IMG/VR virus record: IMGVR_UViG_2703718809_000015
From: a virus
Lineage: Duplodnaviria > Heunggongvirae > Uroviricota > Caudoviricetes
Length of the DNA stretch: 20,934 nt
Direction: 5' to 3' (one strand)
Shown: positions 453 to 17,783 of the stretch, in pieces
Layout of the letters: every line of letters begins with the position of its first letter
Numbering within the stretch: position 1 is the first letter of the stretch
Notes under the pieces: model-generated
What the model was told of the DNA's origin: nothing
Seen by the model: only the letters and a program-made list of their open reading frames with translations
Database searches by the model: none
Made by a program: the position numbers and the translations under genes

Positions 453-502
453 TATTGTTGAATAGCATCTGATAAGAAATTGATGCTAATACTATAAACA
501 TA

Positions 503-1931: not shown

Positions 1932-2953
<1,022 letters not shown>

Positions 2954-3058
2954 GGATATTTATCAGGATTTATCGGTTTCTGAACCCTGGATATGTTTAT
3001 CTGTCCCGGCCTGTTGAATCAGGCGGGGAAAAGGTAAAGACAATCAAGAGGATTATTT

Positions 3059-3331
3059 ATGGACAATAACACCATTTCTCTACAGGAGTTGCTCGACTGC
3101 ATTTCAAAGCTTCGGGATGATGTAAATGCCCTCACTGTTGCATTTTCATATTTGGCCTTATCAATTCCCAGAGAACAAATGCAACCAACACTGGCATCGC
3201 TCCTGCTTGAATCACGCAACCCCAAATGGTCCCAGGAACAACAAAATTCTTTCAAGTGGCTGGCGGCATTACTGGAAGAAAAATATGCTGGTAAAATTAC
3301 CATTTCGGTGGAGTCTTCAGAGAATCAGTAA
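3059..3331 (+). CDS. Hypothetical protein (90 aa) encoded antisense within the lysis cassette
   Basis: ATG at 3059 preceded by AGAGGA with 7-nt spacing; fills the otherwise empty 343-bp gap between the endolysin start and the YdfR-like stop; ordinary amino-acid composition. No family recognised. Confidence 0.4.
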   Translation: MDNNTISLQELLDCISKLRDDVNALTVAFSYLALSIPREQMQPTLASLLLESRNPKWSQEQQNSFKWLAALLEEKYAGKITISVESSENQ

Positions 3332-3641
3332 TTCTTCCTGGTGGCTTTCCTTTGTAGGTTATCCACACATTCTGCGCCTCTAAAATTATGGGGCGCTTTT
3401 CCGGCGACTGCTCATCCCCTACACATAACCCGGCAGCAACATCCAGGAATACCTGTCTGATTCTCATTCTGGCTGCTGCCTCATAAAACTCCAGCGCGGC
3501 ACCTTCAACACGGTCCAGCGAGATGTCCAGGTCAAAAATTTCACCGTCAAAGCGTTTTTTGTCCCGTAAGGCTACAGTTACCGCCACTTTATTCTCAAAA
3601 TTGCGGACTCCTTTCACAACCAGTTCATAGTCTTGTGTCAT
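3297..3641 (-). CDS. YdfR-like protein (114 aa from the ATG at 3639-3641) between holin and endolysin
   Basis: Occupies the position that ydfR holds between essQ and rrrQ in K-12 Qin. The track ORF begins at a TTG at 3662; the first ATG gives MTQDYELVVKG.... Confidence 0.5.
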   Translation of the reverse strand: MTQDYELVVKGVRNFENKVAVTVALRDKKRFDGEIFDLDISLDRVEGAALEFYEAAARMRIRQVFLDVAAGLCVGDEQSPEKRPIILEAQNVWITYKGKPPGRITDSLKTPPKW

Positions 3642-3645
3642 TGGA

Positions 3646-3861
3646 TTACTCTCTTCTCGCAACCTTACGCCTGTCTTCTTTAATCTTGAAATAAAGGTTT
3701 GTCAGATACGTCAGCAGGCCAAAAACCAGACTACCCAGCACACCGATTGCAGCCCACTGTGACGGAGTTACTTTATCGAGTAACTGCAATGCCCAGAAAC
3801 CAGCATTACCAGCCGATGTGCCATAGGCGATACCTGTTGTTAACTTATCCATTGATTTCAT
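3646..3861 (-). CDS. Class II holin / pinholin (S21-like), 71 aa, dual-start motif
   Basis: Translation [71 protein letters not shown]: two transmembrane helices, charged C-terminus, Met1-Lys-Ser-Met4 dual start as in phage 21 S. Upstream of a SAR endolysin. Confidence 0.85.
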
Positions 3862-4079
3862 ATCCTCACCCCGATGTACACAGATGGTGCAATATGTTTG
3901 AAAAGATCGGAGTCTATGGGGTAGTTTTTATAGCAAACGTTGTTCTCAACGGCGCTAAAAAACAGACACATTAAAAATGTGGGTAATTATTTTAAAAGAA
4001 AATCATATATTAAATAATAATACGAGATATGTTTTCATATTTAGTGTACTGTATACGGCCATTTATACAGGAAAAGCCT

Positions 4080-4250
4080 ATGTCAGAACGTAAAGACTCA
4101 AAATCACGCCGTAATTATCTCGTTAAATGTTCCTGCCCAAACTGCACCCAAGAGTCAGAACACAGTTTTTCAAGAGTACAAAAAGGTGCCCTTTTGATCT
4201 GCCCTCATTGCAACAAAGTATTCCAGACAAATCTTAAAGCTGTAGCTTGA
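4080..4250 (+). CDS. Small zinc-ribbon protein (56 aa), possibly YnfU-like
   Basis: Translation MSERKDSKSRRNYLVKCSCPNCTQESEHSFSRVQKGALLICPHCNKVFQTNLKAVA has two CxxC pairs (CPNC, CPHC). AGGAAAA precedes the ATG at 4080; a terminator follows. Confidence 0.55.
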   Translation: MSERKDSKSRRNYLVKCSCPNCTQESEHSFSRVQKGALLICPHCNKVFQTNLKAVA

Positions 4251-4309
4251 TTGATTTTATTCGTAACAAGTATTTTTTATATTTTAATAACATATTTAAA
4301 GCAGATAAT

Positions 4310-4338
4310 AAAAAACCCGCCTGAGCGGGTTTAATATT
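4310..4338. terminator. Bidirectional intrinsic terminator
   Basis: A-run, stem ACCCGC-ctga-GCGGGT, then T-rich sequence on both strands (TTTTTTATTAT on the minus strand). Confidence 0.55.
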
Positions 4339-4613
4339 GTGGTACTTTTTGTGGGAGTCATCCACTTACGCACTTTGTTTTGCTATGCCAGCAGTTAGCT
4401 TCTGCTGTAAAACTATTCATGCAGCAAACCTGCACTTCACCACAATGGTTAGCATACTTTTCCTGATTAAGTTATTGCCAAATATGCTGGCCATTGTTTC
4501 ATGTATTGGACCTCCTTACTATTTATTAAAGAGATCCAATATTCACCACTCTGTCTGTATCTCCACTCAGGCATCAGCCTTCTTCGTTATCGTATACAGA
4601 CAAACTATGAATT

Positions 4614-4829
4614 TTAATCAGTAATTATGACATTTGCTGCTGCAGGACCTTTAGCACCACTCTCTACAGAGAAGGTAACCTTTTGACCTTCAAATAAGGT
4701 TCGATAATTATCATTCTGAATCGCAGAAAAATGCACAAACACATCTTTACTACCATCAACAGGAGAAATAAAGCCAAAACCTTTATCAGCGTTAAACCAT
4801 TTTACTAAACCAGTCATTTTATTTGACAT
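4614..4829 (-). CDS. cspB: Cold-shock protein, CspA family (CspB-like, 71 aa)
   Basis: Translation [71 protein letters not shown]; divergent from the cspF/H-like gene, as cspB-cspF are in Qin. Confidence 0.85.
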
Positions 4830-5129
4830 TCTACATTCCTTAACTTGAGCCTTTCGGCATAAATGGCTTGTATAACAGAAACGACTTCGTACTTAATTGG
4901 AGAGACTCAAAGAAGGAATAAGTGAATAACACCTGAAATGAGAACTGCTTTAGTAAACTACTTCGTATATCGTCTGTTCTTCAAACCGACGCAATCATTA
5001 ACGCATAGTTGAACATATGAAGCAATGTTTATTTTAGACATCCAGCCATCTTCAACCCCATCAAAAAACTATAGCTTTCTTCAGGAACGTGTGTATAGTG
5101 CGCCAAGTTATCAGTATTAAGGAATTTTT

Positions 5130-5342
5130 TTGTCCCGTAAAATGACAGGAATTCTCAAAACCTTTGACGGCAAAAGCGGCAAAGGTCTTATAACCCCATC
5201 CGATGGTCGTATCGATGTCCAGCTTCATGTTTCAGCGCTCAATCTCCGCGATGCAGAAGAAATTACCACCGGATTACGCGTGGAATTTTGCCGGATAAAT
5301 GGTCTGCGTGGACCATCAGCTGCCAATGTTTACCTTTCATGA
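5130..5342 (+). CDS. cspF: Cold-shock-domain protein of the CspF/CspH subfamily (70 aa), apparent TTG start
   Basis: Translation [70 protein letters not shown]. First codon is TTG at 5130, preceded by AGGAA. The cspF versus cspH assignment rests on position only. Confidence 0.8.
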
Positions 5343-5396
5343 GCTATATTAAAGCTTTAACTTCAAGCCCCATCGAATCAAACATGGAGAGTTTTC

Positions 5397-5486
5397 ATGA
5401 ATAAACCCGTCTGTCTTGATGACTGGTTGATTGGCTTTAAAAGCTTATGCTGTACTTTGACCTTAATAGCTCTGCTAATAATGTAA
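5397..5486 (+). CDS. Candidate small protein (29 aa, hydrophobic C-terminus)
   Basis: ATG at 5397 preceded by GGAGAG with about 6-nt spacing; translation [29 protein letters not shown]; immediately downstream of the cspF-like gene. Below the length cutoff of the ORF track. Confidence 0.3.
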
Positions 5487-5635
5487 TAAGCAGACTCATT
5501 GTATCTATGGACATTGTACTGGAAGAAAACATTTTAAACATCAGGCAAAAAACAAAGTCACCCGATAAATAATAAGTAAACTAACATGAATCCCGTAATG
5601 AGATTCAACATCTCTATTACCCTATTTAAAGCACA

Positions 5636-5669
5636 AAAACCCGCTCATCAGCGGGTTTTCTACTTTTTC
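5636..5669. terminator. Bidirectional intrinsic terminator; on the minus strand a candidate tR' after the short pR' transcript
   Basis: A-run, stem CCCGCT-catc-AGCGGG, then TTTTCTACTTTTTC. Confidence 0.6.
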
Positions 5670-5699
5670 TTAACTTCGGGTATACAAAGCCCATCGTTG

Positions 5700-5740
5700 A
5701 AAAAATTTTATCCATATTTTTTGAAAAATGCAAGCATCAC
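5700..5740 (-). promoter_or_regulatory. Putative late promoter pR' (and likely qut region) just downstream of Q
   Basis: Minus strand reads TTGCAT, 17 nt, TAAAAT (-35 at 5728-5733, -10 at 5705-5710), starting about 30 nt after the Q stop; the terminator lies roughly 50-60 nt downstream. Confidence 0.4.
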
Positions 5741-5764
5741 GTCGCCATCTTCGGCGAAAATCAC

Positions 5765-6517
5765 TTATCTCGTCACCTTTCTCAATTGTGCTTCAGCGTA
5801 AGATTCCTCCTGCCAGCACTTTGTAACCAGTTTATCAATGACATTTGCATATCCTTTATACCACTGATAATCACTCAGGTCCGGTACCAGCTTCTGGACA
5901 TGATGCCGCGCCAGTGTGGTTGGTAAACGACTAAACCGTTTTCCATTGCAACGCCCACAAATCTTATAAACAGGTGTGCCATGAAGCCGGGTCCTTTTTT
6001 CATCCAGGACAATACCTTTACCCTTACACCCTCTGCACGCTGTGCTGACTTCTCCCTTACCATGGCAATGCTGACATAGTTCCTTCACCCACTCTTCTTT
6101 GATAACAGATTCCCCGCTTCTGGAGTGTTTCACCACTTCGCGCAATACATTATGAAATCCAGTACCAGCACAATGCTCACAACGAGCCTTACTTGCCGCA
6201 GACCTGGAATAATCAGCAAAGGCAAAATTCACAAGGTAAGGAATAATCTGTAGCCGGGTTTCTTCACTCAATTTATTCAATGTCGGGTTATCCAGTGCCA
6301 TCGCGTAATTGAGCAGACCTTCAATCGCAAACTGAGGATCCTGAACACCAACTTTTGCCAGGAATAAGGCAAACCCAAGCGGTGCTTTCGACTGCACCAT
6401 CCCCTGCGCAGCCATCACATCCGTAATCGTTAAACCACCAGAGCCTGTCGCCGGTGCGTCATCACTCAATTTTGGAGATTTTGGGGAGTAATATTTTGGT
6501 AAGGCTTCAAGGTTCAT
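5765..6517 (-). CDS. Late-gene antiterminator Q (phage 21/82-type, zinc-binding), 250 aa
   Basis: Multiple CxxC motifs (CEHCAGTG, CQHCHGKG, CRGCKGKG, CGRCNGKR); 250 aa, the length of QuuQ in Qin; GGAG 8 nt upstream of the ATG; followed by a promoter-terminator pair. Confidence 0.75.
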   Translation of the reverse strand: MNLEALPKYYSPKSPKLSDDAPATGSGGLTITDVMAAQGMVQSKAPLGFALFLAKVGVQDPQFAIEGLLNYAMALDNPTLNKLSEETRLQIIPYLVNFAFADYSRSAASKARCEHCAGTGFHNVLREVVKHSRSGESVIKEEWVKELCQHCHGKGEVSTACRGCKGKGIVLDEKRTRLHGTPVYKICGRCNGKRFSRLPTTLARHHVQKLVPDLSDYQWYKGYANVIDKLVTKCWQEESYAEAQLRKVTR

Positions 6518-6530
6518 GCTCGTTCTCCAC

Positions 6531-7526
6531 TTACGCCAGTACGCCTATTGCCAGCGCACGATCGATAAAACGAAATATCAGCTCCAGCTGGGAGCCATAC
6601 TTCTCTTCAAATGCCACGGTATCCGCATGCAGCTCGTCGTGATGCTTTCTGCACAAAGGCAACACAAAAAGGTCATGCGCTTTTGTACCCATTCCCCCCT
6701 GACCGTGGCCTATCAGGTGGTGGGGATCATCAGCAGGTTTTCCACAACATGCGCACGGCTGCGTCTTAACCCAGCGCGTGTACTTTTCATTAACCCAGCG
6801 GTGACGTTTTGGGCGTAACATAAAAGACTCCGGCGACTCCGGATCCACTTTCAGCGCCAGCACCTTTTTCGCCTTATCCTGGATGATGCTGGTGGCAGGA
6901 ACCGAAGGCACAAGGTCACTTTCCCGGGTAACAGACGGCACAACAGGCTTCGGTAATCTCAGTGCCTTACGGGCTGCACTTTCCGGTAAGGCATCCGCCA
7001 GATCATTACGAATCAGCCACCAGCACAGTTCCGGCATTGTCACAACATGACTGTCATCAAAACCGAGATCCCGACGCACAACAGACAACACCCAGCGGGC
7101 ACAGTTATCCGTTGCCATTGATTCCAGCCGTTCCGTGAACTGATCGCGCAGCTGGTTATCGCAGTGCCAGCACAGACGGATTGCGCCCGGAGCGTGTCGC
7201 ATTGTTGTCATGTTCTCGCTGTGCCAGTCGGAATGAGGCCACTGGCAGCCTTTTTCACGAAGTAACCAGCTTTCAAGACATTCCACGCCACCAGCACGAC
7301 GGATCACTGCCTCATTGCGGAACACGGCCCGAACGGCAGGATCATCCGCCAGCGGTTGTGATGCCGCCGGAACGGCACCACTGGCGAAAGATGAATAACG
7401 TTCCGGCTCAGGCTCCAGCAGGACACGCCCCTGCATAAACAAGGGCATCAGCTCTGAACCTGGTCTGAACAATACGATCCCCATACGCGGGGCAATTTCA
7501 GGGGTCAGTAGTGCTCTCACGGTCAC
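6531..7526 (-). CDS. DUF968-family protein (YdfU-like), C-terminal Cys/His-rich HNH-like motif; start uncertain (GTG at 7526)
   Basis: C-terminus QPCACCGKPADDPHHLIGHGQGGMGTKAHDLFVLPLCRKHHDELH; sits immediately upstream of Q on the same strand, as ydfU does in Qin. Confidence 0.6.
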   Translation of the reverse strand: MTVRALLTPEIAPRMGIVLFRPGSELMPLFMQGRVLLEPEPERYSSFASGAVPAASQPLADDPAVRAVFRNEAVIRRAGGVECLESWLLREKGCQWPHSDWHSENMTTMRHAPGAIRLCWHCDNQLRDQFTERLESMATDNCARWVLSVVRRDLGFDDSHVVTMPELCWWLIRNDLADALPESAARKALRLPKPVVPSVTRESDLVPSVPATSIIQDKAKKVLALKVDPESPESFMLRPKRHRWVNEKYTRWVKTQPCACCGKPADDPHHLIGHGQGGMGTKAHDLFVLPLCRKHHDELHADTVAFEEKYGSQLELIFRFIDRALAIGVLA

Positions 7527-7527
7527 C

Positions 7528-8343
7528 TCAATGAACGGTATCGAGCAGCTTTAACAGCTCAGGGAATCGGGATTCGAAGAAATGCGGCTGCGTCTCGCGC
7601 GGATTTGCAGGACTGGTGATGTTCTTGCCGAACATGCAGCCTTTCGCGGTCAGCGACCAGAATTTTTTGATGTTGTTAATCGCGGTACGACTGTATCGTT
7701 CGCGTTGTTCAACGATCCCCAGCTTCGCCATCTGGTGATATGCCTGATTAGCCGTCAGGCGGATACCATACTGCTTCAGCAGTGCACTCAGCGACAGCGT
7801 AGGGCGGCTTGAACCATCTGGCGCATCAGCAGGTGCATCAATGGCATAGATCGGCATAAGTTCAGGAAGACCAGCTACCTTTGATAATTTCTGGTATGCA
7901 CCAAGTTTCGAGGAGTTTGACAGATTTAGAGTCTTTGCTGCTGATTCAAGCAGAATGACCCCGGATTTAATTTTGTCGGATGTGGTTTCTTCTGGTGATG
8001 AATTATGAAGCGCATCAAAAGTACGTATCACTTTTAAGCTGAATGCCGGGCTGATCCACATTGCATATGCATAGACCAGCTCTTTACAGACATACGTCCC
8101 ACCATTGCGCCCCTGAATGGTGATGACAGGAATACTACGGGAATCTCCCGTAGTTTCTTCTTCCAATAATTCCACAAGAGCCTTCGTTTCAGGACGACGC
8201 ATAAACTCGTGAACTTCCAGCGAACGGGAGGAGCGATTCTCACCAGCGGCAAGAAGAGCAGCTTTCTGAAGGTCGTTAAGACAGTAGTTAGATTCGAAGT
8301 ACTGGCGCACAGAAACGCCATCAATTACAAGCAACTGATTCAT
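7528..8343 (-). CDS. KilA-N domain protein (candidate antirepressor-like), about 271 aa from the ATG at 8341-8343
   Basis: N-terminus MNQLLVIDGVSVRQYFESNYCLNDLQKAALLAAG... resembles the KilA-N/APSES-type fold. GGAG about 6 nt upstream of the ATG; the track ORF starts at an upstream GTG. Confidence 0.6.
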   Translation of the reverse strand: MNQLLVIDGVSVRQYFESNYCLNDLQKAALLAAGENRSSRSLEVHEFMRRPETKALVELLEEETTGDSRSIPVITIQGRNGGTYVCKELVYAYAMWISPAFSLKVIRTFDALHNSSPEETTSDKIKSGVILLESAAKTLNLSNSSKLGAYQKLSKVAGLPELMPIYAIDAPADAPDGSSRPTLSLSALLKQYGIRLTANQAYHQMAKLGIVEQRERYSRTAINNIKKFWSLTAKGCMFGKNITSPANPRETQPHFFESRFPELLKLLDTVH

Positions 8344-8440
8344 TGGTTTCTCCACAAATTTTTATCCACGAGCGGGACTGCACTCCCTTTTCGTTGATGC
8401 AGGATGAACTTACTGCGATTTTTAATAGTTATCAAGGATA

Positions 8441-8460
8441 CACTGTTCATAAATACAGTA
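8441..8460. promoter_or_regulatory. Canonical LexA (SOS) box upstream of the KilA-N gene
   Basis: CACTGTTCATAAATACAGTA fits CTGT-N8-ACAG exactly. It sits just downstream of a candidate minus-strand promoter (TTGAGC at 8495-8500, 17 nt, TATTAC at 8472-8477). Confidence 0.5.
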
Positions 8461-8505
8461 TCTTTAACGAGGTAATACCCAAATTTAGGGTGTTGCTCAA
8501 TTCCG

Positions 8506-8950
8506 TTACCGAGTTGCTAATTTGCAACTCGCTTTTTCGTACTTACTGATAGTGATCTCGACCTTCCCCTCCGGGATAACCGGTCCCCACTCCACCAGCA
8601 TTCTTTTCACCTGACTGTCGTCTTCCCACACACCCGCGTGGGTCAGGACGTCAAACAGCGCCTTGTTATAGTTGTCCAAGATCGCGGATCCGGTTATCCG
8701 GAGGAAACAACACGATCTCCACTGAAGCAGGTGCCGACGTTGGTTTTGGCAGACGACGTAACTGCTCAACTATTGCTGCGCACGCCGCGCTCTGGAATTT
8801 GCGCCCCGCCGCGCTCTGGAATTTGCGCCCCGCCGCGCTCTGGAATTTGCGCCCCGCCGCGCTTATCAGGCTCTTACCTGCAAACGCCCCTTTGTTGGGG
8901 TGTCGCCAGTACGTGTTCACGCTGGGCGGAAAAGGCAGGATCAGCTTCAT
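8506..8950 (-). pseudogene. rusA: rusA-like Holliday-junction resolvase, frameshifted, with an in-frame triplicated 24-bp repeat
   Basis: N-terminal part MKLILPFPPSVNTYWRH...PPDNRIRDL (ORF 8666-8950) and C-terminal part LDNYNKALFDVLTHAGVWEDDSQV... (ORF 8506-8769) are in different frames. A GG at about 8676-8677 where a single G would restore RIRDLDNYNK (the catalytic acidic motif region) is the apparent +1 insertion. Confidence 0.75.
8784..8864. repeat. Perfect tandem repeat, 24 bp x 3 plus a partial fourth copy, inside rusA
   Basis: GCCGCGCTCTGGAATTTGCGCCCC at 8784-8807, 8808-8831 and 8832-8855, then GCCGCGCT; encodes SAAGRKFQ three times on the minus strand. Confidence 0.9.
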
Positions 8951-9273
8951 GCTTTCAGGCCCCTCTCATGTAACCAGTGGGTTGCACGCAGCCTTGCGTT
9001 TTCCTCACCGGCAAGCAGTGAGCGGATAATCCCGACCGCCTCGCTGTCGTCGTCCTTCACCGCGGTATGAAGCGTTATCCCCCGGGCCACGCCACGCTTT
9101 ATCGTGATGACGCCTTTTTTCTCCAGTGCGCGAAGATGCTCCACCGCTGCATTCACTGAACGGTATCCCAGCATGGTTGCCACCTCCTGATTGGTTGGCG
9201 GGAAGCCACGTTCTTTCTGGTAAGAAATCAGCATATCCAGCACCTGCTGCTGGCATTGAGTTAATGTCGCCAT
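8947..9273 (-). CDS. LexA-like N-terminal DNA-binding-domain protein (108 aa), no S24 peptidase domain
   Basis: Translation MATLTQCQQQVLDMLISYQKERGFPPTNQEVATMLGYRSVNAAVEHLRALEKKGVITIKRGVARGITL closely parallels the LexA winged-HTH domain including the recognition-helix region (S-x-N-A-A-x-E-H-L-x-A-L). The C-terminal 40 aa is unrelated to the LexA peptidase. ATGA overlap with rusA. Confidence 0.65.
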   Translation of the reverse strand: MATLTQCQQQVLDMLISYQKERGFPPTNQEVATMLGYRSVNAAVEHLRALEKKGVITIKRGVARGITLHTAVKDDDSEAVGIIRSLLAGEENARLRATHWLHERGLKA

Positions 9274-9923
9274 GCCGCCATCTCCCTGACCAGTTTTTCC
9301 GCCTGCTGGCGAACCTGCGCCAGAAAGGCCTCACCACATGCCTCAAGTTCATCGCGCCCGATGTAGCTGATTGCCGGTCCCTTCCAGGTCTTGTCGAAAA
9401 CAGCAATAGCACCAGCGAAGAAAGCGCCTGTCGGCACCTGCTTCTCGTCCTTCGGGATAAACCAGGCTGGCAGTTCAAAACCAATACGCCCGCGAATAAA
9501 AGCAATATGGTCTGCATCTTCCGGCCACCAAACTTCGCTGGTGGCAGCTTTGATCAGGAAAACATAGCGCCCACCTTTATCACGCATGGCACTGGCATGT
9601 TTCATGATGTAACGCATGCCGGTGATGTATTGCCCCTCATGCTGACTGGCGCGGCTGTACGGGGGATTACCAAAGGCAGCACCTTTAAGCTCCGCAAGAC
9701 GTTCAGACCAGTCATGCGCCAGCGCGTTGTCTTCCGCAGTGTAATAAGCGGCACATTTGGCGTTATCACCATCAGTGAACAGATCCAGAACAAACGGGCC
9801 AAACAGGGTGTTAATTCCCCAGAAAATGTTGTCCGGCGTGCGCCACTGATCGCCCACTTCCTTCAGTTCATGGGCTGGTTTGTTCCGCAGCTCCACCAGC
9901 GCCTGGCAATATTTATTACTCAT
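9261..9923 (-). CDS. Phage N6-adenine DNA methyltransferase (Dam-like orphan methylase), about 220 aa
   Basis: NPPY catalytic motif (FGNPPYSRA). ATG at 9921-9923 overlaps the TAA of the upstream gene (TAATG). Confidence 0.8.
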   Translation of the reverse strand: MSNKYCQALVELRNKPAHELKEVGDQWRTPDNIFWGINTLFGPFVLDLFTDGDNAKCAAYYTAEDNALAHDWSERLAELKGAAFGNPPYSRASQHEGQYITGMRYIMKHASAMRDKGGRYVFLIKAATSEVWWPEDADHIAFIRGRIGFELPAWFIPKDEKQVPTGAFFAGAIAVFDKTWKGPAISYIGRDELEACGEAFLAQVRQQAEKLVREMAAWRH

Positions 9924-10411
9924 TAAGCCCCCACGTAATTCCCTGACAGATACCACTCTTCACCCGATGCAGCGCGCTTGCTGCTTTTCCGTAAGCACCG
10001 CTCACGATGCGCCAGAAAATTGTTTCGTTCTGGCTGGGAGTGGCTTTCACGGAATGCCGCCATCCACACCGTTGCAGCTCGACGGAATAAGCCCCTGGAC
10101 TCCAGTTCTTCAGCCTGGCGGGTCAGGCACAAAATCACCCGGGGGTCGTTAGTGCCGACATAGAAATTGCGCACAGGTCTGGTTTCACGAACAGATTGTG
10201 GTTCCGGCTCCTGCGCTCTCTCAGTCAGGCGCGGGAAATGTCTGCGTGTATCTCCTTCACAACGGTGAGCCACACGCCCACTCTGACGTAACTTGCTTGC
10301 TGACTGCAGAACGCGCTGCCGTGAGTAACCAGCAAAAGCATCCGCAATGTCTCCGGAAGTACACCCCGGATGGGCTTCAATGAATTTCTGAACTTCATTC
10401 AAAAGACTCAT
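9923..10411 (-). CDS. Putative regulator with N-terminal winged-HTH-like region and C-terminal PerC-like motif (about 162 aa)
   Basis: C-terminal AEELESRGLFRRAATVWMAAF resembles the PerC-family signature as I recall it; N-terminal region is HTH-like. AGGGGG upstream of the ATG at 10409-10411. Confidence 0.5.
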   Translation of the reverse strand: MSLLNEVQKFIEAHPGCTSGDIADAFAGYSRQRVLQSASKLRQSGRVAHRCEGDTRRHFPRLTERAQEPEPQSVRETRPVRNFYVGTNDPRVILCLTRQAEELESRGLFRRAATVWMAAFRESHSQPERNNFLAHRERCLRKSSKRAASGEEWYLSGNYVGA

Positions 10412-10413
10412 AA

Positions 10414-11232
10414 TCACCCCCTGAATCCTGCCGGGATCTGGCTGTAGTCCACGTTGTCGTAACTGGCTTTGAAGTACGGGTCCTCGCGTCTGGCTGCAGA
10501 TACTGCAGGAACTTCCCAGGATTCTTCGAAATGACGATCCGGACCAAAGAACGTGACAGCCTGTTTCACAAATTGTGTGCCGCTGTTACCCATCGCAGAT
10601 ACCCAGCCCGCGTAGCGTTTCACACCTTCCAGCATGGTTTCGGGGTTTACCCCCTCATTCAAACGGGCTTTCCAGGCTTTGAAGGCTGCAGATTTTGAAT
10701 TGCCACCAGCACGTTTGGGATAGGCCAGCCATGCCTGCTCAAACTCCGGAGAGTATTCCGGTCGGTTTGAACGAACTCGCACAGACTCATCAGCAGATTC
10801 ACCAACAGCTATTGGTTCATTGACTGGTTCTTTGACTGGTTCAAAAGAGTGACTGGTTCTGGGTGAATCTCCTGCACTACCCCCTGGTGCAACTCCTGCA
10901 CTACCTGGTGAATTTGCTGCACCAGATAGTGAATTATTTGCACTACCCCCTAGTGAATCTCCTGCATCATCAAGATGAAGAAGATAGATATTACTTGAGT
11001 TACCTTTTTCACCTTTCCGGGTGACTTTTTTTACCAGCCCGGACTCACAGAGGGCCGCAATATGATTCATCACAGAACGTTTGCTAATCTCGCACTGATC
11101 AGCGATATGCTGATAGCTGGGCCAGCACTCACCCTGATCGCTGGCATTATCAGCCAGCTTAATCAGAACCAGTTTTCGCAATGGATTTCCCACTCGAATT
11201 TTCATCGCTTTAACCATCAGCTCCATACTCAT
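10414..11232 (-). CDS. Replication initiator O-like protein (N-terminal HTH, repeat-encoded linker, C-terminal domain), 272 aa
   Basis: N-terminal HTH (QHIADQCEISKRSVMNHIAALCESGLVKK); the central low-complexity linker is encoded by direct DNA repeats; position after the cro / CII-like genes; ATGA overlap with the upstream gene. Confidence 0.6.
   Translation of the reverse strand: MSMELMVKAMKIRVGNPLRKLVLIKLADNASDQGECWPSYQHIADQCEISKRSVMNHIAALCESGLVKKVTRKGEKGNSSNIYLLHLDDAGDSLGGSANNSLSGAANSPGSAGVAPGGSAGDSPRTSHSFEPVKEPVNEPIAVGESADESVRVRSNRPEYSPEFEQAWLAYPKRAGGNSKSAAFKAWKARLNEGVNPETMLEGVKRYAGWVSAMGNSGTQFVKQAVTFFGPDRHFEESWEVPAVSAARREDPYFKASYDNVDYSQIPAGFRG
10812..10975. repeat. Iteron-like direct repeats inside the O-like gene (candidate replication origin)
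   Basis: TGACTGGTTC at 10821-10830, 10833-10842 and 10850-10859; then about five imperfect 21-26-bp repeats of GTGAAT-yt-CTGCAC-...-GTG at 10863-10975; an AT-rich stretch follows at about 10978-11015. Confidence 0.5.
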
Positions 11233-11453
11233 GCAGCACCTCCGAGATGCTTCATGTTTTTTCCGGAGCGAAAGGCTATAAGCGGCATACTGACGCGGTA
11301 ACTACGGCCCAGCGGTTCACAAATCACCTTCTGACATTCACGGTCAACCAGGCTAACACGTAGAACATGCCCTGCAGGTGTGGTGTACCACTGACCCGGA
11401 CGAGGACAACGGAAAGTCTGATTGGTAAACCGTTTGAAAATATTCCGGATCAT
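11229..11453 (-). CDS. Hypothetical protein (74 aa), translationally coupled between the Rha-domain ORF and the O-like gene
   Basis: ATGA overlaps at both ends (11450-11453 and 11229-11232). No family recognised. Confidence 0.45.
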   Translation of the reverse strand: MIRNIFKRFTNQTFRCPRPGQWYTTPAGHVLRVSLVDRECQKVICEPLGRSYRVSMPLIAFRSGKNMKHLGGAA

Positions 11454-12598
11454 TTGCGCCCCCTTACCTCTGAAGGGTTCAGCGACAAATTTATGAGGCA
11501 GGCCAGTGCCGAAGCATCATTAATATAGTCATACAAGCTAACAGCCAGCGGAGATTCGGCTTTTGCCAACATAGGATAAAGCTGCTGCAGCCAGACCTGA
11601 TGAATTGATGAAATGTAGGAATAGAGAATGCTGGCGTTATGTGCAACGTCGCTCGGTACAGAGGGTTTTGAAAGCTGTTTCTCCATCTGGTTAAAGGCAT
11701 TGATATATGCCTCTTTGAACTGGGCAGCACGTTTACCCGTGAAACCCATAGCAAGAAACGCAAAGCCGTCGCGGGTTATTTGATAGCAAGGTAGTTTGCG
11801 GCCTGATGCGTCGATGTACTCACTGAGCTGGAAATTCAGCTCAGTAAATTCGGCAGAGCATTCAAGAGACGCAATTTTTTGAATGACATTTTTGTGTTGT
11901 TTGCCGAAATAACTAGCAACAGCCAGAGAAGAAGTAACAACTTTGTCTGCAATAATGCAAAGTTCAGGTTGTACTAAGGCAGGGATCGTAGCCATGATGG
12001 CAGCCTCCGTATGCAATGGATAACTTCCACCACCGGAAACGCCAATTTCGCTGGTGGTGAACTGAGCAGGGTTGGCGTAACCGGCGCATACGGAAACCGG
12101 CGCACCTTTCGGTGCCCCCACCCAGCCCACCATAATTTGGGTATAGCTGAGTTGTAGCAACAAAAAAGACGCTAACGCGCCAATTGTCGCCGTATGCAAT
12201 TCCAGGACGCCAATCCCGGCACCCGCTTTATAAGGTGCCTGAACAGTGTAACGTCCCGGAATGGCAGAATCAATGTGCTGGTGGTCCTTCACACTCAACA
12301 AAATCACGCCTGAATTTCCACAAAGGACTAAAGCACTCATGCGGGTAGTCTTTGCGAAGATAGATAACGCGCTGTGTTTCTGGCTCCCAACGAATAACAT
12401 GAACATAAAGTCCTCTTCCGTCACGAAACCAGCGGTTAAGTTCCTGCACAACTCGCCCCCCACAGTCAGGTAAAGTTCTCTGTGGTTACTTACAGCCAGG
12501 TGATTTGGTAATCTGCATTCATGCCGTAACAACAGGTGTTCAGCCACGCGGACCACCAGCTGTTGCGACCAACGGTTATTTGCCGTTAAACTGTTCAT
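11450..12598 (-). CDS. Rha-domain phage regulatory protein; 382-aa ORF with an unrecognised about-200-aa N-terminal extension (alternative internal start at 11995 gives about 181 aa)
   Basis: C-terminal half LAVASYFGKQHKNVIQKI...GRKLPCYQITRDGFAFLAMGFTGKRAAQFKEAYINAFNQMEKQL matches the Rha signature. The ATG at 12596-12598 overlaps the stop of the upstream gene (ATGA); a second ATG at 11993-11995 has GGAGG 8 nt upstream. Confidence 0.6.
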   Translation of the reverse strand: MNSLTANNRWSQQLVVRVAEHLLLRHECRLPNHLAVSNHRELYLTVGGELCRNLTAGFVTEEDFMFMLFVGSQKHSALSIFAKTTRMSALVLCGNSGVILLSVKDHQHIDSAIPGRYTVQAPYKAGAGIGVLELHTATIGALASFLLLQLSYTQIMVGWVGAPKGAPVSVCAGYANPAQFTTSEIGVSGGGSYPLHTEAAIMATIPALVQPELCIIADKVVTSSLAVASYFGKQHKNVIQKIASLECSAEFTELNFQLSEYIDASGRKLPCYQITRDGFAFLAMGFTGKRAAQFKEAYINAFNQMEKQLSKPSVPSDVAHNASILYSYISSIHQVWLQQLYPMLAKAESPLAVSLYDYINDASALACLINLSLNPSEVRGRK

Positions 12599-13146
12599 GC
12601 GTTAGTTTCTCCACAGACACAAAACGCCACGACGCCCGGAGCTGCACACTCGCGGGCGTCACTCTTTTCTGGAACGCAGAAAATTTTGTAGACCAGTGCC
12701 GCATGTTCCTGGAGCTTCGAAATCGACAGATACAACTCATCATTAATTGCTGTCTGCTCATGTGGCTCCACTACCCCGTCTTCGATTGCCGAACGAATCT
12801 GCTTTGAGTAACTCCCGATCTGTTCAATAACTTCCAGTAGACGTTGGTTGATATCAGCGTTCTCTACTTCCTCAATTTCTGGAAGTGATACAAACACCCC
12901 ACCAGCAGACTGTGCGACAGCATCCGCAATGTGGTGAGTACCAGCCGCACGCTGTAAAACCATTGCCCATCCCAACGGAAAAAACTGATCGCCATCGGCA
13001 CGAAGGCGGTTAAATAATGCGTTATCTGTTACATCCAGCCAGTCAGCAGCTTCAGCGTAACCACCTGGTAATGCCGCGATAGTTTTTCTGACAGCTTTCA
13101 CGTACCAGTCAGGTTGTTTTTCCACTTTCCAGTGATACTTACCCAC
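12595..13146 (-). CDS. Putative phage regulatory protein at the cII position (183 aa), GTG start
   Basis: Directly downstream of the cro-like gene; GTG at 13144-13146 preceded by AGGAGG with 6-nt spacing. Functional assignment is positional only. Confidence 0.45.
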   Translation of the reverse strand: MGKYHWKVEKQPDWYVKAVRKTIAALPGGYAEAADWLDVTDNALFNRLRADGDQFFPLGWAMVLQRAAGTHHIADAVAQSAGGVFVSLPEIEEVENADINQRLLEVIEQIGSYSKQIRSAIEDGVVEPHEQTAINDELYLSISKLQEHAALVYKIFCVPEKSDARECAAPGVVAFCVCGETNA

Positions 13147-13399
13147 GGCTTACCTCCTGTTCCTGTGGTTTTAACTCATTCTGGTTTTGACTAGATTGAA
13201 AGCGCGCAGGATAGAGAATCTGCATTTCGCTGATTTCTCCCTTAAAAAAATTGGCCAGACGCTCTGCAAGATCGATAGATGGAATTTGTTCCAGTCTCTC
13301 AATACGACTCAGCGTCGCTGGATTAACCTGAACGCCCGCAGCAACATGCTGCAAAGTAAACCCATGCGCCTTACGCACATTTCGTAATGGTGATTGCAT
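13139..13399 (-). CDS. cro: Cro-like HTH (XRE-family) regulator, 86 aa
   Basis: HTH segment FTLQHVAAGVQVNPATLSRIERLEQIPSIDLAERLANFF; divergent from the cI-like gene across an operator region; GGAGG 4 nt upstream of the ATG. Confidence 0.7.
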   Translation of the reverse strand: MQSPLRNVRKAHGFTLQHVAAGVQVNPATLSRIERLEQIPSIDLAERLANFFKGEISEMQILYPARFQSSQNQNELKPQEQEVSRG

Positions 13400-13496
13400 A
13401 TAACCTCCACATATTGCGTGATAAGCATATTATTTCACGCAAATGTTTTGCGCAAGTTGATTTGCTTAACGCGCAATAAAGAAATGTAATAAACGC
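13400..13496. promoter_or_regulatory. oR-like region: divergent pR / pRM with TTGC-N7-GCAA operator candidates
   Basis: Operator-like sites TTGCTTAACGCGCAA (13462-13476) and TTGCGTGATAAGCAT (13413-13427). pR on the minus strand: TTGCGC (13450-13455), 17 nt, TAATAT (13427-13432). TAATAA at 13487-13492 sits just before the cI ATG, suggesting a near-leaderless cI transcript. Confidence 0.5.
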
Positions 13497-14189
13497 ATGA
13501 ACATAGGAAACCGAGTCAGACAACTTCGCCAAGCGAAGAACATGAAAATCGCCGATCTCGCTGAAGCAATAGGAGTGGATGCGGCGAATATCTCGCGCCT
13601 GGAAACAGGTAAGCAGAAACAATTCACTGAACAAGCCCTGAGTAATATTGCCAGGAGCTTAGGTGTTGATATTGCTGATCTCTTTACCTCAGACGTCAAA
13701 AGTAATACTGTATATAAAAACAGTGTTAGTGAGGATGTTGCGCAGGTGAAGGATGTATTCCGTATTGAAATGCTGGATGTCAGTGCCAGTGCGGGAAATG
13801 GCCTTATCCAGGGCGGTGATGTCATTGATGTGATTCATGCCATTGAATACAGAACTGATAATGCTGTATCGATGTTTGGCGGACGACCAGCCAATCACAT
13901 TAAAGTTATCAACGTTCGTGGGGACAGTATGTGTCCAACCATTGAGCCAGGAGATCTCATCTTCGTTGATGTCAGTATCAATCAGTTTGATGGAGATGGT
14001 ATCTATGTATTTGGTTTTGATGATAAAATTTACGTTAAACGACTGCAAATGATACCCGACAAACTGCTGGTAATTTCGGATAATCAGATTTACCGTGAAT
14101 GGGGAATTACCAGCGAAAATGAACACCGGTTTATGGTCTTTGGAAAGGTCTTAATCAGCCAGTCACAAACTCTTAAGCGACACAATTAA
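13497..14189 (+). CDS. cI: CI-like repressor (HTH XRE domain plus S24 LexA-like autopeptidase domain), 230 aa
   Basis: N-terminal HTH (MKIADLAEAIGVDAANISRLETGKQ); C-terminal GDSM serine motif and VKRL lysine; Ala-Gly in the linker (SASAGNG). Confidence 0.85.
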   Translation: MNIGNRVRQLRQAKNMKIADLAEAIGVDAANISRLETGKQKQFTEQALSNIARSLGVDIADLFTSDVKSNTVYKNSVSEDVAQVKDVFRIEMLDVSASAGNGLIQGGDVIDVIHAIEYRTDNAVSMFGGRPANHIKVINVRGDSMCPTIEPGDLIFVDVSINQFDGDGIYVFGFDDKIYVKRLQMIPDKLLVISDNQIYREWGITSENEHRFMVFGKVLISQSQTLKRHN

Positions 14190-14209
14190 CCCTTACCTCC
14201 TCATCAATT

Positions 14210-14236
14210 AGCCACCCGAAGGTGGCTTTTCATTTC
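14210..14236 (+). terminator. Intrinsic terminator after cI
   Basis: Stem AGCCACC-cgaa-GGTGGCT followed by TTTTCATTT. Confidence 0.65.
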
Positions 14237-14240
14237 CCAT

Positions 14241-14300
14241 AAAATTGCATATCTCGCAATAAAAACACTTGCATAATGCGCAACTTCATTTTATCTTTCT
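14241..14300 (+). promoter_or_regulatory. oL-like operator pair with candidate pL
   Basis: TTGCATATCTCGCAA (14245-14259) and TTGCATAATGCGCAA (14269-14283), same TTGC-N7-GCAA pattern as oR, centres 24 bp apart. Exact -35/-10 not resolved. Confidence 0.4.
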
Positions 14301-14708
14301 TTCCAGACCAACAAACAAGGTACGAACAAAATTTGGTTGTAACACGGCGTATGGCACATGCGTCGTTAGCGGTCTGGGGACGTTAAAGGGGACAATCCAC
14401 TCCTTGCTCGGGCAAACAAACCAGGTAGCCGGAATGTGCAAGTCAATGATGATGCTGATAAGACGCCTAACCAGCGTGGCGATTCGGTTTGACGCCTGGG
14501 AAGAGACCAGGGTGCAACGATGAGGGCATTTATGGAGCCGCGACAAAGTGTGGTGCCGTAACTGGCTAAGTGCTCTCAGCGTTGTGGTAATCCGCGAAAT
14601 GGCGCGGCGGTAAGTATGGCGGGGTTACTCTTTCCCCGTTGAGGACACCGGATTGTCAGGTTGACCATACGCCTGAGTGACAACCCCACCACAACAGCCA
14701 CTGCTTTG

Positions 14709-14754
14709 GCGGTACCAGTTTGTACACTTGCTTCCGGCTGGTACCGCTCTTTTT
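14709..14754 (+). terminator. Intrinsic terminator in the early-left leader
   Basis: 10-bp perfect stem GCGGTACCAG ... CTGGTACCGC with a 19-nt loop, followed by TCTTTTT. Confidence 0.45.
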
Positions 14755-14891
14755 ACAAAACAGAGAAGAGCATCGCCGGACGACGGGCTCATAACCCAAT
14801 CCATCCGGGCGGCTGCCACCGCAGGTGTTCTTCTCTGTTTTGTGGAGAAACCAACCGACCTTGCAGGGTCGATATGATGAGGAGCAGCAAA

Positions 14892-15254
14892 ATGGCTAGC
14901 GAACGCAGTACTGATGTGCAGACATTTATCGGGGAGCTGGACGGCGGCGTATTTGAAACCAAAATCGGCGCTGTTCTCAGTGAAGTCGCTTCCGGTGTGA
15001 TGAACACGAAAACCAAAGGTAAGGTCTCGCTCAACCTGGAAATCGAACCGTTTGATGAGAACCGTGTGAAAATCAAACACAAACTCTCATATGTTCGCCC
15101 GACTAACCGCGGGAAAATTTCCGAAGAAGACACCACCGAAACGCCGATGTATGTCAATCGCGGTGGTCGCCTGACTATTCTGCAGGAAGACCAGGGACAA
15201 TTACTGACTCTTGCCGGTGAACCTGACGGAAAACTCCGCGCAGCAGGTCGTTAA
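14892..15254 (+). CDS. yfdP: YfdP-like prophage protein (120 aa)
   Basis: ATG at 14892 preceded by GAGGAG with 7-nt spacing; first of four consecutive genes whose lengths (120, 274, 178, 120 aa) match the CPS-53 yfdP-yfdS block as I recall it. The in-frame upstream extension in the track is leader, not coding. Confidence 0.55.
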   Translation: MASERSTDVQTFIGELDGGVFETKIGAVLSEVASGVMNTKTKGKVSLNLEIEPFDENRVKIKHKLSYVRPTNRGKISEEDTTETPMYVNRGGRLTILQEDQGQLLTLAGEPDGKLRAAGR

Positions 15255-15320
15255 TATCGTTTTTAATAAACTAATTATTCATCTTATCACTGAATATCTT
15301 TAATATAATGAGGACTTATT

Positions 15321-16145
15321 ATGTCTCAGAACTTAGACGCAACCGCAATTAATCAAATCCATGCCCTTATTTCTGCTCAGGGTGTTAATGAAATTATCAG
15401 TAAGATTGGTGCCGATGCTGTGGCATTGCCTGAGAATTTCCGCATTCATGATCTGGAAAAATTTAATTTAAATCGTTTCCGTTTCCGTGGTGCGCTTTCC
15501 ACTGCCAGCATCGATGACTTTACCCGTTATTCTAAAGATCTTGCAGATGAAGGCACCCGCTGCTTTATCGATGCCGATAATATGCGTGCCGTCAGTGTGC
15601 TTAACCTGGGTACTATTGATGAGCCAGGTCACGCAGATAACACTGCCACTCTCAAACTGAAAAAGACAGCACCGTTCTCTGCTCTGTTGTCTGTTAATGG
15701 CGAGCGTAACTCCCAGAAGTCACTGGCAGAATGGATTGAAGACTGGGCCGACTACCTTGTGGGCTTTGATGCTAATGGTGACACCATTCAGGCAACCAAA
15801 GCGGCTGCGGCGATCCGTAAAATCACAATTGAAGCGAACCAGACCGCTGATTTTGAAGATAATGACTTCAGCGGCAAACGCTCCCTGATGGAGTCTGTCG
15901 AAGCGAAGACCAAAGACATTATGCCAGTGGCATTTGAATTTAAATGCGTTCCGTTTGAAGGCCTGAAAGAACGTCCGTTTAAATTACGCCTCAGCATTAT
16001 CACTGGCGATCATCCTGTACTGGTTCTGCGCATTATTCAGCTGGAAGCGGTACAGGAAGAAATGGCTAACGAATTTCGTGATCTGCTTGTTGAGAAATTC
16101 AAAGACAGCAAAGTAGAAACCTTTATTGGTACTTTCACCGCCTGA
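15321..16145 (+). CDS. yfdQ: YfdQ-like (DUF2303) protein, 274 aa
   Basis: 274 aa, acidic, ordinary composition; position and length match yfdQ in the CPS-53 block. Confidence 0.6.
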
Positions 16146-16273
16146 TTTCATTACTGAAAATGCCCCTGCGGGGGCATTTATGGAAACGTAATTTACTCAA
16201 TAATCGCCGGATGGTAAGGGCTTCTTTTTACCAAAATTCAGTGCGGTGCAGCGCAAATAACGTGGAGAACAAA

Positions 16274-16810
16274 ATGTCATTTATTAAAACTTTTTCCGGG
16301 AAGCATTTTTATTATGACAAGATAAATAAAGACGACATCGTTATTAACGATATCGCGGTTTCCCTTTCAAATATCTGTCGCTTTGCAGGGCATCTTTCAC
16401 ACTTCTACAGCGTCGCCCAACATGCGGTTCTTTGCAGCCAGCTGGTACCGCAGGAATTTGCTTTTGAAGCGTTAATGCATGATGCAACAGAAGCGTATTG
16501 CCAGGACATCCCCGCTCCACTGAAACGCCTTCTTCCTGACTATAAACAGATGGAAGAAAAAATAGACGCCGTAATCCGTGAGAAATATGGGTTACCCCCG
16601 GTTATGAGTACGCCCGTGAAATATGCCGATCTCATCATGCTGGCAACCGAACGCCGCGATCTCGGGCTTGATGATGGCTCTTTCTGGCCTGTACTGGAAG
16701 GCATCCCGGCAACAGAGATGTTCAACGTGATTCCACTGGCACCGGGCCATGCCTACGGGATGTTTATGGAACGTTTTAACGAGTTATCGGAGTTACGCAA
16801 ATGCGCATGA
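16274..16810 (+). CDS. yfdR: HD-domain phosphohydrolase, YfdR-like, 178 aa
   Basis: H...HD metal-binding pattern (AGHLSHFYSVAQHAV ... LMHDATEAY); GGAG 7 nt upstream of the ATG at 16274; the track ORF starts at an upstream in-frame codon. Confidence 0.6.
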   Translation: MSFIKTFSGKHFYYDKINKDDIVINDIAVSLSNICRFAGHLSHFYSVAQHAVLCSQLVPQEFAFEALMHDATEAYCQDIPAPLKRLLPDYKQMEEKIDAVIREKYGLPPVMSTPVKYADLIMLATERRDLGLDDGSFWPVLEGIPATEMFNVIPLAPGHAYGMFMERFNELSELRKCA

Positions 16811-17163
16811 ATGTTTTCGAAATGGAAGGGTTTCTTCGCGGGATATGTGTACCGCGAGATCTGAAAGTAAACGAAACAAATGCTGAGTATCTGGTGCGTA
16901 AATTCGATGCGCTTGAAGCTAAATGTGCGGCACTGGAAAACAAAATAATACCAGTGTCAGTTGAACTGCCACCATCAAATGAAAGTGTTATGTTATTTGA
17001 TGCTAACGGAGAAGGCTGGCTAATTGGCTGGCGTTCTCTCTGGTACACCTGGGGACAAAAAGAAACCGGAGAATGGCAGTGGACATTTCAGGTCGGGGAC
17101 CTTGAAAACATCAATATCACTCACTGGGCAGTAATGCCGAAAGCACCGGAGGCTGGGGCATAA
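16801..17163 (+). CDS. yfdS: YfdS-like protein, 120 aa
   Basis: Overlaps the end of the yfdR-like gene; length and position match. Confidence 0.5.
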   Translation: MRMNVFEMEGFLRGICVPRDLKVNETNAEYLVRKFDALEAKCAALENKIIPVSVELPPSNESVMLFDANGEGWLIGWRSLWYTWGQKETGEWQWTFQVGDLENINITHWAVMPKAPEAGA

Positions 17164-17783
17164 TGACCACTTTCACCGATAAGGAACTGATTAAAGAAAT
17201 CAAAGAACGAATCGGCAGCTTAGACGTGCGAGACAATGTTGAGCGCCGTGCTTATGAAATTGCTCTGGCATCACTGGAAGCAGAGCCGGTGGCGTGGCTT
17301 CATTCAGACAATGGCTTAGGTATTCCGGCAATAACCAGGAGCAAAAACATTGCTGACAGTTGGTTATCAAGGGGCTGGTATGTTCAGCCGCTATATATGG
17401 CTCAGCCAGTGTCGGTGGTGCCGGATGCTCTTCCGTCTTTAAATAATGGCATAGTCGGCTTTGATGAAGGCTGGAACGCCTGCCGCGCCGTCATGCTTCA
17501 TGGTGCCGAACCTGTAAGCCAGACTTACAAGTTGAACAAGCTGTCGGGCAACTCTCCGGTAACTCCGGATGGTTGGATAAGCTGTAGTGAGCGAATGCCG
17601 AACGATAAACAGTATGTTTGGTGTTGGGGGAAGCCTTACAGCTGGACTGAGTGCGATACCTTCGAAGGGTATTACGATTGGTCGAGAAACAAATGGTGGG
17701 CAGTTACTGACGATGGGGAAGAACCGGCATCGAAAGTAACCCACTGGATGCCGCTACCGGAGCCACCGCAGGAGGTGAAGTAA
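17163..17783 (+). CDS. DUF551-domain phage protein, 206 aa
   Basis: C-terminal VTHWMPLPEPP motif typical of DUF551; start overlaps the preceding stop. Confidence 0.55.
   Translation: MTTFTDKELIKEIKERIGSLDVRDNVERRAYEIALASLEAEPVAWLHSDNGLGIPAITRSKNIADSWLSRGWYVQPLYMAQPVSVVPDALPSLNNGIVGFDEGWNACRAVMLHGAEPVSQTYKLNKLSGNSPVTPDGWISCSERMPNDKQYVWCWGKPYSWTECDTFEGYYDWSRNKWWAVTDDGEEPASKVTHWMPLPEPPQEVK

Follow-up and report, generated by a model that had tools for sequence, protein, structure and literature searches.

The open reading frame at positions 9923-10411 of the window, a stretch of 20,934 nucleotides that consists of prophage DNA without host DNA, encodes YfdN, a PerC-family protein in which a predicted winged helix precedes the PerC domain. 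By analogy with characterised relatives, we see about an even chance that YfdN is an early phage regulator, which would dock on DNA, bind a partner protein and change transcription locally. The identification itself is correct and known, as gene and family label are already found in databases and in the literature. The result is in this respect the re-identification of a very common, already annotated prophage gene and adds little; the modest additions are the conserved architecture of winged helix plus PerC domain, the relationship between the PerC and ANR families, and the kept placement of the gene after the replication initiator. Among the regulator-like genes of E. coli prophages that are still uncharacterised, yfdN is one of the most widespread, and it also occurs in Shigella serotype-converting phages and Stx2c phages. 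Since a PerC domain and a domain of the DNA-binding type are naturally fused in YfdN, and given its link to ANRs, the protein offers a handle on the mode of action of PerC proteins, namely nucleoid-protein versus DNA binding.

A widespread prophage gene and its early operon

An earlier note on this DNA had read a PerC-like motif, AEELESRGLFRRAATVWMAAF, in an open reading frame of the nin region. Frame and motif are both present as it described them, on the minus strand, which the note had left out, and a profile search upholds the family: the Pfam PerC model (PF06069) matches residues 98-149 of the 162-aa product (nt 9965-10120) with E 7.3e-8 and 33.0 bits, a match far beyond chance given the gathering cut-off of 22.6 bits. 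The full length of the protein (residues 1-161) is covered by PHROG 1324, 'transcriptional activator', at E 7e-78, and other PHROGs cover the N-terminal part alone or the C-terminal part alone. On 100% identical DNA, RefSeq carries the label 'yfdN: PerC family transcriptional regulator'.

In RefSeq, 2668 complete E. coli genomes out of 5426 carry a match to yfdN, nearly always on the chromosome. At the amino acid level the window protein is 96.3% identical to K-12 YfdN (b2357, from the cryptic prophage CPS-53), 95.7% to SfV orf40 and 69% to ST64B sb43; together with the mEp460 counterpart, these represent the same gene with the same length and two-domain layout. The phages SfII and SfIV also carry yfdN, as does mEp460. 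ETEC H10407 has an identical allele, as has strain M-17, which was isolated from the medicine 'BIOFLOR', and alleles of 95-99% identity are carried by O157:H7 phages of the Stx2c and Stx2a types. With a dN/dS of 0.15-0.26, the window ORF is, to judge from its sequence, an intact yfdN allele under purifying selection. The protein is labelled uncharacterised in UniProt, in EcoCyc-style records and in a 2025 interactome paper, and a study of ler regulation names the gene as the sole PerC homologue of K12 (PMC5931665).

The gene and the neighbours to which the following paragraphs refer are these:

9923..10411, minus strand: yfdN-type coding sequence of 162 aa (from the ORF list and its translation)
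10417..10422, minus strand: Shine-Dalgarno-like AGGGGG, 5 nt before the yfdN ATG and within the last codons of the upstream gene (read from the sequence)
10414..11232, minus strand: upstream gene, replication-initiator-like, with an HTH_36 / DnaD_N N-terminus (Pfam) and a C-terminal IPAGFRG (nt 10417-10437)
9261..9923, minus strand: downstream gene for a Dam-type N6-adenine methyltransferase (Pfam PF05869, E 1e-45)
5765..6517, minus strand: Q antiterminator

Read directly from the sequence, yfdN opens with an ATG at 10411-10409 and closes with a TAA at 9925-9923. The TGA stop of the initiator gene (10416-10414) lies two bases ahead of this ATG, and at the other end the yfdN stop is overlapped by the ATG of the methyltransferase gene in the sequence TAATG. 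This packing of starts and stops at both ends indicates that yfdN belongs to an operon and is translationally coupled to both of its neighbours. Many RefSeq records begin the gene at a GTG at 10417 instead, which adds two residues and yields a form of 164 aa.

On a larger scale, the window represents a lambdoid prophage in which cI is followed by minus-strand early genes through to Q. Their order begins with a cro-like gene, a cII-like gene (Phage_CP76), Rha/Ash, a 74-aa ORF, the initiator and yfdN, and continues with the Dam methyltransferase, a LexA-DBD-only protein, rusA, KilA-N, DUF968 and Q. The gene yfdN comes next after the replication initiator and lies between it and Q, a nin-equivalent position, and the placement in the nin region that had been proposed for it is correct in this positional sense. 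Between the pR region and yfdN, no sigma-70-like site was found on the yfdN strand. Judged by gene order, the prophage is lambdoid and of the SfV/mEp460/CPS-53 type, with yfdN as the first accessory gene of its early-right (pR-type) operon.

The same order is seen in the plaque-forming phages SfV and ST64B, in whose records the homologue of the initiator gene is annotated as 'replication protein', and the orthologues of K-12, SfV and ST64B share both neighbours with the window, the initiator upstream and the methyltransferase downstream. In K-12, the flanking yfdO and yfdM are truncated and the immunity region is gone, whereas the operon in the window is complete. Even relatives down to 23-30% identity keep the order around yfdN; in loci whose yfdN relatives are 27-33% identical, the methyltransferase belongs to the MT-A70 or MethyltransfD12 family or is absent. 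The synteny sample comprised about a dozen loci; a locus search with the initiator alignment returned 80 near-identical E. coli loci, a set without diversity.

The position also brings to mind a function known from lambda, in which a gene at the same place after the replication genes encodes Ren, and YfdN might accordingly be thought of as a Ren-like exclusion or superinfection function. In addition to the shared operon position, residues 3-66 match phrog_142, 'Ren-like exclusion protein', at E 0.0057. This one match is all the homology that the comparison with the nin/ren region of lambda yields; it is however marginal, no stretch passes alone, and the PerC domain is without a counterpart in Ren, so that we regard a Ren-like role as extremely improbable. 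None of the anti-phage defence models of PADLOC matches YfdN.

The initiator and its C-terminal tail

Does the close association with the initiator gene point to a role in replication? Phages in which yfdN follows the initiator are without a helicase or loader gene, and for this reason an adaptor role was considered. YfdN would then be a replication accessory protein in the slot of lambda P or of a DnaC-like loader, which aids the initiator in recruiting the host DnaB, perhaps via the C-terminal IPxGFRG of the initiator. Several observations are in line with this idea. The placement of yfdN directly downstream of the initiator gene, with translational coupling, recurs in SfV, ST64B and distant relatives. 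In Aeromonas phage AsXd-1, an initiator of 67% identity is followed by DnaC-like and DnaB-like genes instead, and the same succession is found in Stx1_14744. Furthermore, the IPxGFRG tail ends the initiators upstream of 10 out of 12 diverse genes that encode a winged helix plus PerC domain, and synonymous codon differences within it argue for selection at the protein level. The tail is missing in the initiators of AsXd-1 and Stx1_14744, where a phage DnaB-like gene is present.

A wider look at the tail, however, dissociates it from YfdN. It is found on initiators that are followed by a DnaC-like loader in loci without YfdN, namely Klebsiella ST846-OXA48phi9.2 and PhiR5_2, as well as on the initiator of phage Evi, which is followed by a DUF977 gene. 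Conversely, two of the genes for winged-helix PerC proteins have no tail upstream, and one of these adjoins no initiator at all. Since it occurs in loci without YfdN, the tail tracks the absence of a phage DnaB and not the presence of YfdN. Single-domain PerC proteins, moreover, act on transcription. As the tail proved to be independent of YfdN, the adaptor idea was downgraded, and we now consider it very improbable.

Two modules joined by a variable linker

Within the 162 residues of YfdN, five segments can be told apart:

10232..10405, minus strand: N-terminal winged helix-turn-helix domain, residues 3-60 (AlphaFold2, Foldseek and profile search)
10145..10231, minus strand: Pro/Glu-rich linker, residues 61-89, predicted to be disordered (AlphaFold2 and alignment)
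9983..10144, minus strand: PerC/ANR-type three-helix domain, residues 90-143 (AlphaFold2)
10052..10114, minus strand: signature AEELESRGLFRRAATVWMAAF, residues 100-120 (translation)
9929..9955, minus strand: conserved C-terminal tail WYLSGNYVG, residues 153-161 (alignment; low-confidence model)

In an AlphaFold2 model built on the family alignment (mean pLDDT 80), the N-terminus consists of helices at residues 3-13, 19-25 and 31-44 and a beta hairpin at 47-60, all with a pLDDT of 85-91. The predicted topology H-H-H-beta-beta corresponds to three helices with a beta-hairpin wing. Foldseek superimposes this part on winged helices of the ArsR/SmtB, MarR, BlaI and Fur types over 58-68 residues at 1.6-2.5 A, with a probability of about 1.0 and E values no better than 4e-3. 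In a comparison of a profile of 35 family members with the PDB, winged helices of BlaI, MarR and MecI are retrieved at E 2.6e-4 to 0.02, with BlaI as the best match (E 2.6e-4). Weak MarR-type matches to the N-terminus are also obtained in PHROGs and NCBIfam. For the window protein itself there is no match to a Pfam wHTH family even at E up to 10, and among the 35 sequences compared with Pfam a few relatives match Penicillinase_R, MarR_2 or HTH_24 via their N-terminal block. The basic residues K40, R42, R46, R57 and H58, which fall on helix 3 and the wing, are invariant in close relatives. Together, model and profiles predict a winged-helix fold of the DNA-binding type for the N-terminal residues, and the winged-HTH-like region of the earlier note thereby finds its place in a predicted structure. 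Winged helices serve in some cases as protein-binding modules, and such domains, for example that of RPA32, are also included in the PDB profile matches of the family.

The winged helix is followed by a segment that the model leaves without defined structure, with a pLDDT below 50 at residues 64-79. Its length and sequence differ among relatives, which keep two conserved blocks with a variable Pro/Glu-rich segment between them. How far this layout extends can be seen from a sequence scan of 1.84 billion cluster representatives, which retrieved no more than 96 clusters at E <= 1e-3. Some 27 of the 96 are relatives over the full length, with 138-165 aa and an identity of 23-47%, and the combination of winged helix and PerC domain is kept in these approximately 27 representatives down to an identity of 23%. 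All 35 aligned relatives match Pfam PerC. The protein P0185, of 462 aa, contains seven PerC-like stretches but was rejected as a repeat protein, its Pfam matches being spurious and due to low complexity only.

The C-terminal domain is modelled as three helices (residues 90-106, 109-122 and 126-143) with a pLDDT above 90. The signature AEELESRGLFRRAATVWMAAF runs from the last part of helix 1 across the turn at G107 and along helix 2, and the family alignment shows little or no variation at A100, L103, R111, A112 and A113. Searches of the PDB by sequence and by profile retrieved no solved structure related to the PerC domain, which models as a generic three-helix bundle of the TPR/MIT-like kind, with Foldseek E values no better than 0.25.

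A relationship becomes visible at the level of sequence. The spacing A-x3-E-x7-A-x3-W-x2-A in the window protein is that of the published ANR signature: A10, E14, A22, W26, A29 and R47 of the ANRs correspond to A100, E104, A112, W116, A119 and R136 (PMC4983702). When PerC-domain sequences of the family were compared with the NCBIfam model ANR_neg_reg (NF033650), 29 of 37 matched at E < 0.01, the best at 6e-12. As relatives reach this value, the PerC and ANR families appear to be related; the window protein itself scores 19.1-20.5 bits, below the curated cut-off of 32, and is by this rule not a member of the ANRs. A three-helix domain and the signature spacing are thus common to YfdN and the ANR family, of which Aar of EAEC is an example, whereas ANRs are stand-alone proteins of less than 10 kDa and the window protein has 162 aa and a winged helix.

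Beyond the three helices, the tail follows the pattern W-[YC]-L-[SA]-G-x-[YF]-x-G in the rows of the alignment, with G157 and G161 nearly invariant in the 35 relatives. The same tail is found in the single-domain relatives P0181, P0183 and P0201.

The PerC domain, its possible partners and host genes

The best-studied activity in the vicinity of YfdN is the activation of ler by PerC and by PchA/B/C (PMC5931665, PMC4764244). PerC is located on the EPEC plasmid pEAF and PchA/B/C on EHEC prophages, and YfdN shares with them the PF06069 domain and the carriage on mobile elements. At the LEE1 promoter, Pch lowers the binding of H-NS and alleviates silencing mediated by H-NS, StpA, Hha and YdgT (PMC4764244). 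Gel shifts gave no complex of PerC with LEE1 promoter DNA, and a review terms the PerC mechanism unresolved (PMC6094958). In PerC/Pch and YfdN alike, no reader of DNA sequence has been demonstrated within the PerC domain. The proteins differ in their build: PerC and PchA-E are single-domain proteins of about 90-105 aa (the group-1 pch genes have 315 bp), whereas YfdN has 162 aa, with winged helix and linker added, and its extra domain of the winged-helix type is absent from the characterised PerC/Pch proteins. They also differ in location, as yfdN is part of the early operon and PerC/Pch are found at a moron position.

An instructive case is PchE of O157:H7 Sakai (ECs_1588, 90 aa, on the element Sp7). 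In a BLASTP comparison, 19 of 52 residues of the PerC core are identical (37%, E 1e-8), and the alignment pairs the AEELE..G.(F/Y)RRAA..W motif as well as an R..C motif. Like yfdN, the gene lies just downstream of replication genes, here for primase and SSB, and it is co-transcribed with the upstream ECs1586 and ECs1587 (PMC7369912); PchE has a single domain, whereas YfdN has two. PchE reportedly represses csgD/curli and affects flagella, and its effect on ler is less than 2-fold (PMC6265319, PMC7369912, PMC5931665).

The family, fold and position given in the earlier note hold, and its further suggestion of cross-talk with virulence loci of the host is unproven. In this reading YfdN would act, upon prophage induction, as an activator of ler/LEE or of another host virulence locus in the manner of PchABC and PerC. 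Its membership in the family of these ler activators speaks for it, as do the YfdN alleles on Stx2c and Stx2a phages of O157:H7, which is LEE-positive and in which the idea of LEE cross-talk is therefore testable; yfdN was also deleted by the authors of PMC5931665 for a clean background in their ler-lacZ reporter strain. However, activation of ler has been seen only for PerC and the group-1 single-domain PchA/B/C, while PchD and PchE hardly affect it, if at all (PMC5931665). PerC-like proteins of PICIs in EDL933 and CFT073 leave LEE1 fusions unaffected, and EcCIMP1_025, a PerC-family protein from a phage-inducible chromosomal island, reportedly represses LEE1 in Citrobacter rodentium (PMC11773190). 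The effects of the PerC family at LEE1 hence vary between activation, repression and none. The identity to PchE is confined to 52 residues in proteins of different architecture, and yfdN occurs in about half of the complete E. coli genomes. Most yfdN-bearing E. coli genomes are LEE-negative. By analogy with these relatives, ler activation by YfdN is not favoured, and a role as virulence activator seems improbable to us.

The kinship with ANRs opens another route. These three-helix proteins below 10 kDa do not bind DNA; their partners are AraC-type regulators, AggR among them, and H-NS, and Aar binds both H-NS and AraC-type regulators (PMC4983702, PMC5570504). YfdN could in analogy be a pure anti-regulator that makes protein contacts only and sequesters H-NS or else a regulator of the AraC type or of the phage, with the winged helix as a second module for protein binding or oligomerisation. 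Such a role is consistent with the relation of its PerC domain to proteins that themselves act without DNA binding, with the protein-binding RPA32 among the profile matches, and with EcCIMP1_025. The latter resembles YfdN by description, being a PerC-family protein of a phage-related element, and it silences LEE1; matches to ANRs were noted for it by its authors (PMC11773190). On the other hand, the best matches of the N-terminus in sequence and fold are the DNA-binding repressors BlaI, MarR and ArsR/SmtB, and the invariant basic residues of helix 3 and the wing in close relatives likewise speak against protein contacts alone. We therefore deem a pure anti-regulator rather unlikely.

As an early phage regulator, the role that we prefer for it, YfdN would be made once the prophage is derepressed. 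It would attach to DNA through its modelled winged helix, while the PerC domain, held by a flexible linker of about 30 residues, would bind a protein partner rather than DNA, most plausibly nucleoid proteins of the H-NS family or another regulator. That the PerC domain binds a partner is suggested by the relief of H-NS silencing by Pch and by the binding of Aar to H-NS and AraC-type regulators. The outcome would be a local shift between silencing and activation at promoters of the phage and perhaps also of the host.

A more specific version of this role can be put forward tentatively, and we hold it to be possible though doubtful. PerC and ANR would together make up a single superfamily, whose three-helix modules take hold of H-NS-family proteins or AraC-type regulators, and in YfdN such a module would be fused to a winged helix, giving a counter-silencer tethered to DNA through which a derepressed prophage lifts or redirects silencing at specific promoters of phage and host. 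If true, prophage induction would be coupled to traits under H-NS control such as curli, flagella and LEE.

In favour of the role as an early phage regulator, yfdN is listed at 12.61, beside other prophage genes, in a table of transcripts from the NO response of CFT073 (PMC5320621).

The methyltransferase slot and the integrity of yfdN

The gene directly 3' of the two-domain wHTH-PerC genes encodes an adenine methyltransferase, for example at the following positions:

window 9261..9923, adenine methyltransferase directly 3' of yfdN
L004 (compared locus) 4456..5109, adenine methyltransferase directly 3' of the wHTH-PerC gene
L005 (compared locus) 4163..5050, adenine methyltransferase directly 3' of the wHTH-PerC gene

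Depending on the phage, this enzyme belongs to one of three unrelated Pfam families, namely Dam (PF05869), MT-A70 or MethyltransfD12, and one relative has nothing in this place. The pattern looks like a non-orthologous swapping of methyltransferase families within one fixed slot.

Other domain arrangements occur as well. P0121 (382 aa) is a read-through fusion of YfdN and Dam, and both P0020 (238 aa) and P0021 (240 aa) combine Dam and PerC domains. Another variant, P0184 (214 aa), has two winged helices followed by the PerC domain.

A reduced version of the neighbourhood is found in the CPS-53 prophage of E. coli K-12:

L098 (CPS-53) 6113..7247, yfdN region

Here yfdN is intact (164 aa), while its neighbours on both sides are truncated remnants: yfdO corresponds to the C-terminal part of the initiator and yfdM to the N-terminal part of the methyltransferase. 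The immunity region is absent from this prophage.

A C-terminal peptide common to initiator-like proteins

The replication-initiator-like protein encoded directly upstream of yfdN ends in a short peptide:

window 10417..10437, minus strand, C-terminal peptide of the initiator

The same tail occurs in L004 (at 3972), L005 (3724), L008 (4975), L011 (3873), L094-L097, L099 and L100. It follows the pattern D-x-[ST]-[QE]-I-P-x-G-F-R-G and is common to initiator-like proteins whose bodies are only 20-29% identical. Its codons differ synonymously while the peptide is kept. In a small sample, the tail was present in phages without a DnaB helicase of their own and absent in phages with one. It may be a docking site for a host factor; to our knowledge, this tail has not been described.

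Further genes of the early operon

Three other genes of this region deserve a description:

window 8506..8950, minus strand, rusA
window 8947..9273, minus strand, LexA DNA-binding-domain protein, 108 aa (Pfam E 5e-19)
window 11450..12598, minus strand, Ash and Rha domain protein, 382 aa (Pfam E 2e-17 for Ash, 2e-32 for Rha)

Within rusA lies a perfect 24-bp tandem repeat of 3.4 copies (8783..8863, minus strand), which is 48 bp longer than in strains JNE25-003 and H10407. In addition, a 1-nt insertion at about 8679 (minus strand; GATCTTGGAC versus GATC-TGGAC) breaks the frame into two ORFs. Given these findings, rusA of the window prophage is probably a pseudogene.

The 108-aa protein consists of the LexA DNA-binding domain alone, without the S24 cleavage domain, and is kept in SfV, PhiR49_1_star and distant relatives. 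A possible role is that of a LexA-like, non-cleavable repressor expressed from the early operon. The Ash-Rha gene comes after the cII-like gene and before the initiator, a position in which other members of the window's phage group carry a different gene (ymfM, DUF4222).

The PchE element and the late region

PchE of E. coli Sakai is carried by a small element:

L003 (Sakai) 4712..20172, element Sp7

Besides PchE, Sp7 encodes an integrase, a primase, an SSB-like protein, capsid, protease, portal and terminase, and no tail genes were found in L003 4712..20172. Its layout resembles a capsid-forming phage satellite more than a degraded prophage.

The equivalent prophage in the closest annotated genome (L002, 3500..8500) holds, as annotated there, a cold-shock cluster (cspI, cspB, cspF, ymcF, ynfN) together with gnsB in its late/lysis region, whose window counterpart is placed at about 500..5400 by homology to that genome. 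The Qin prophage likewise has cold-shock genes and gnsB.
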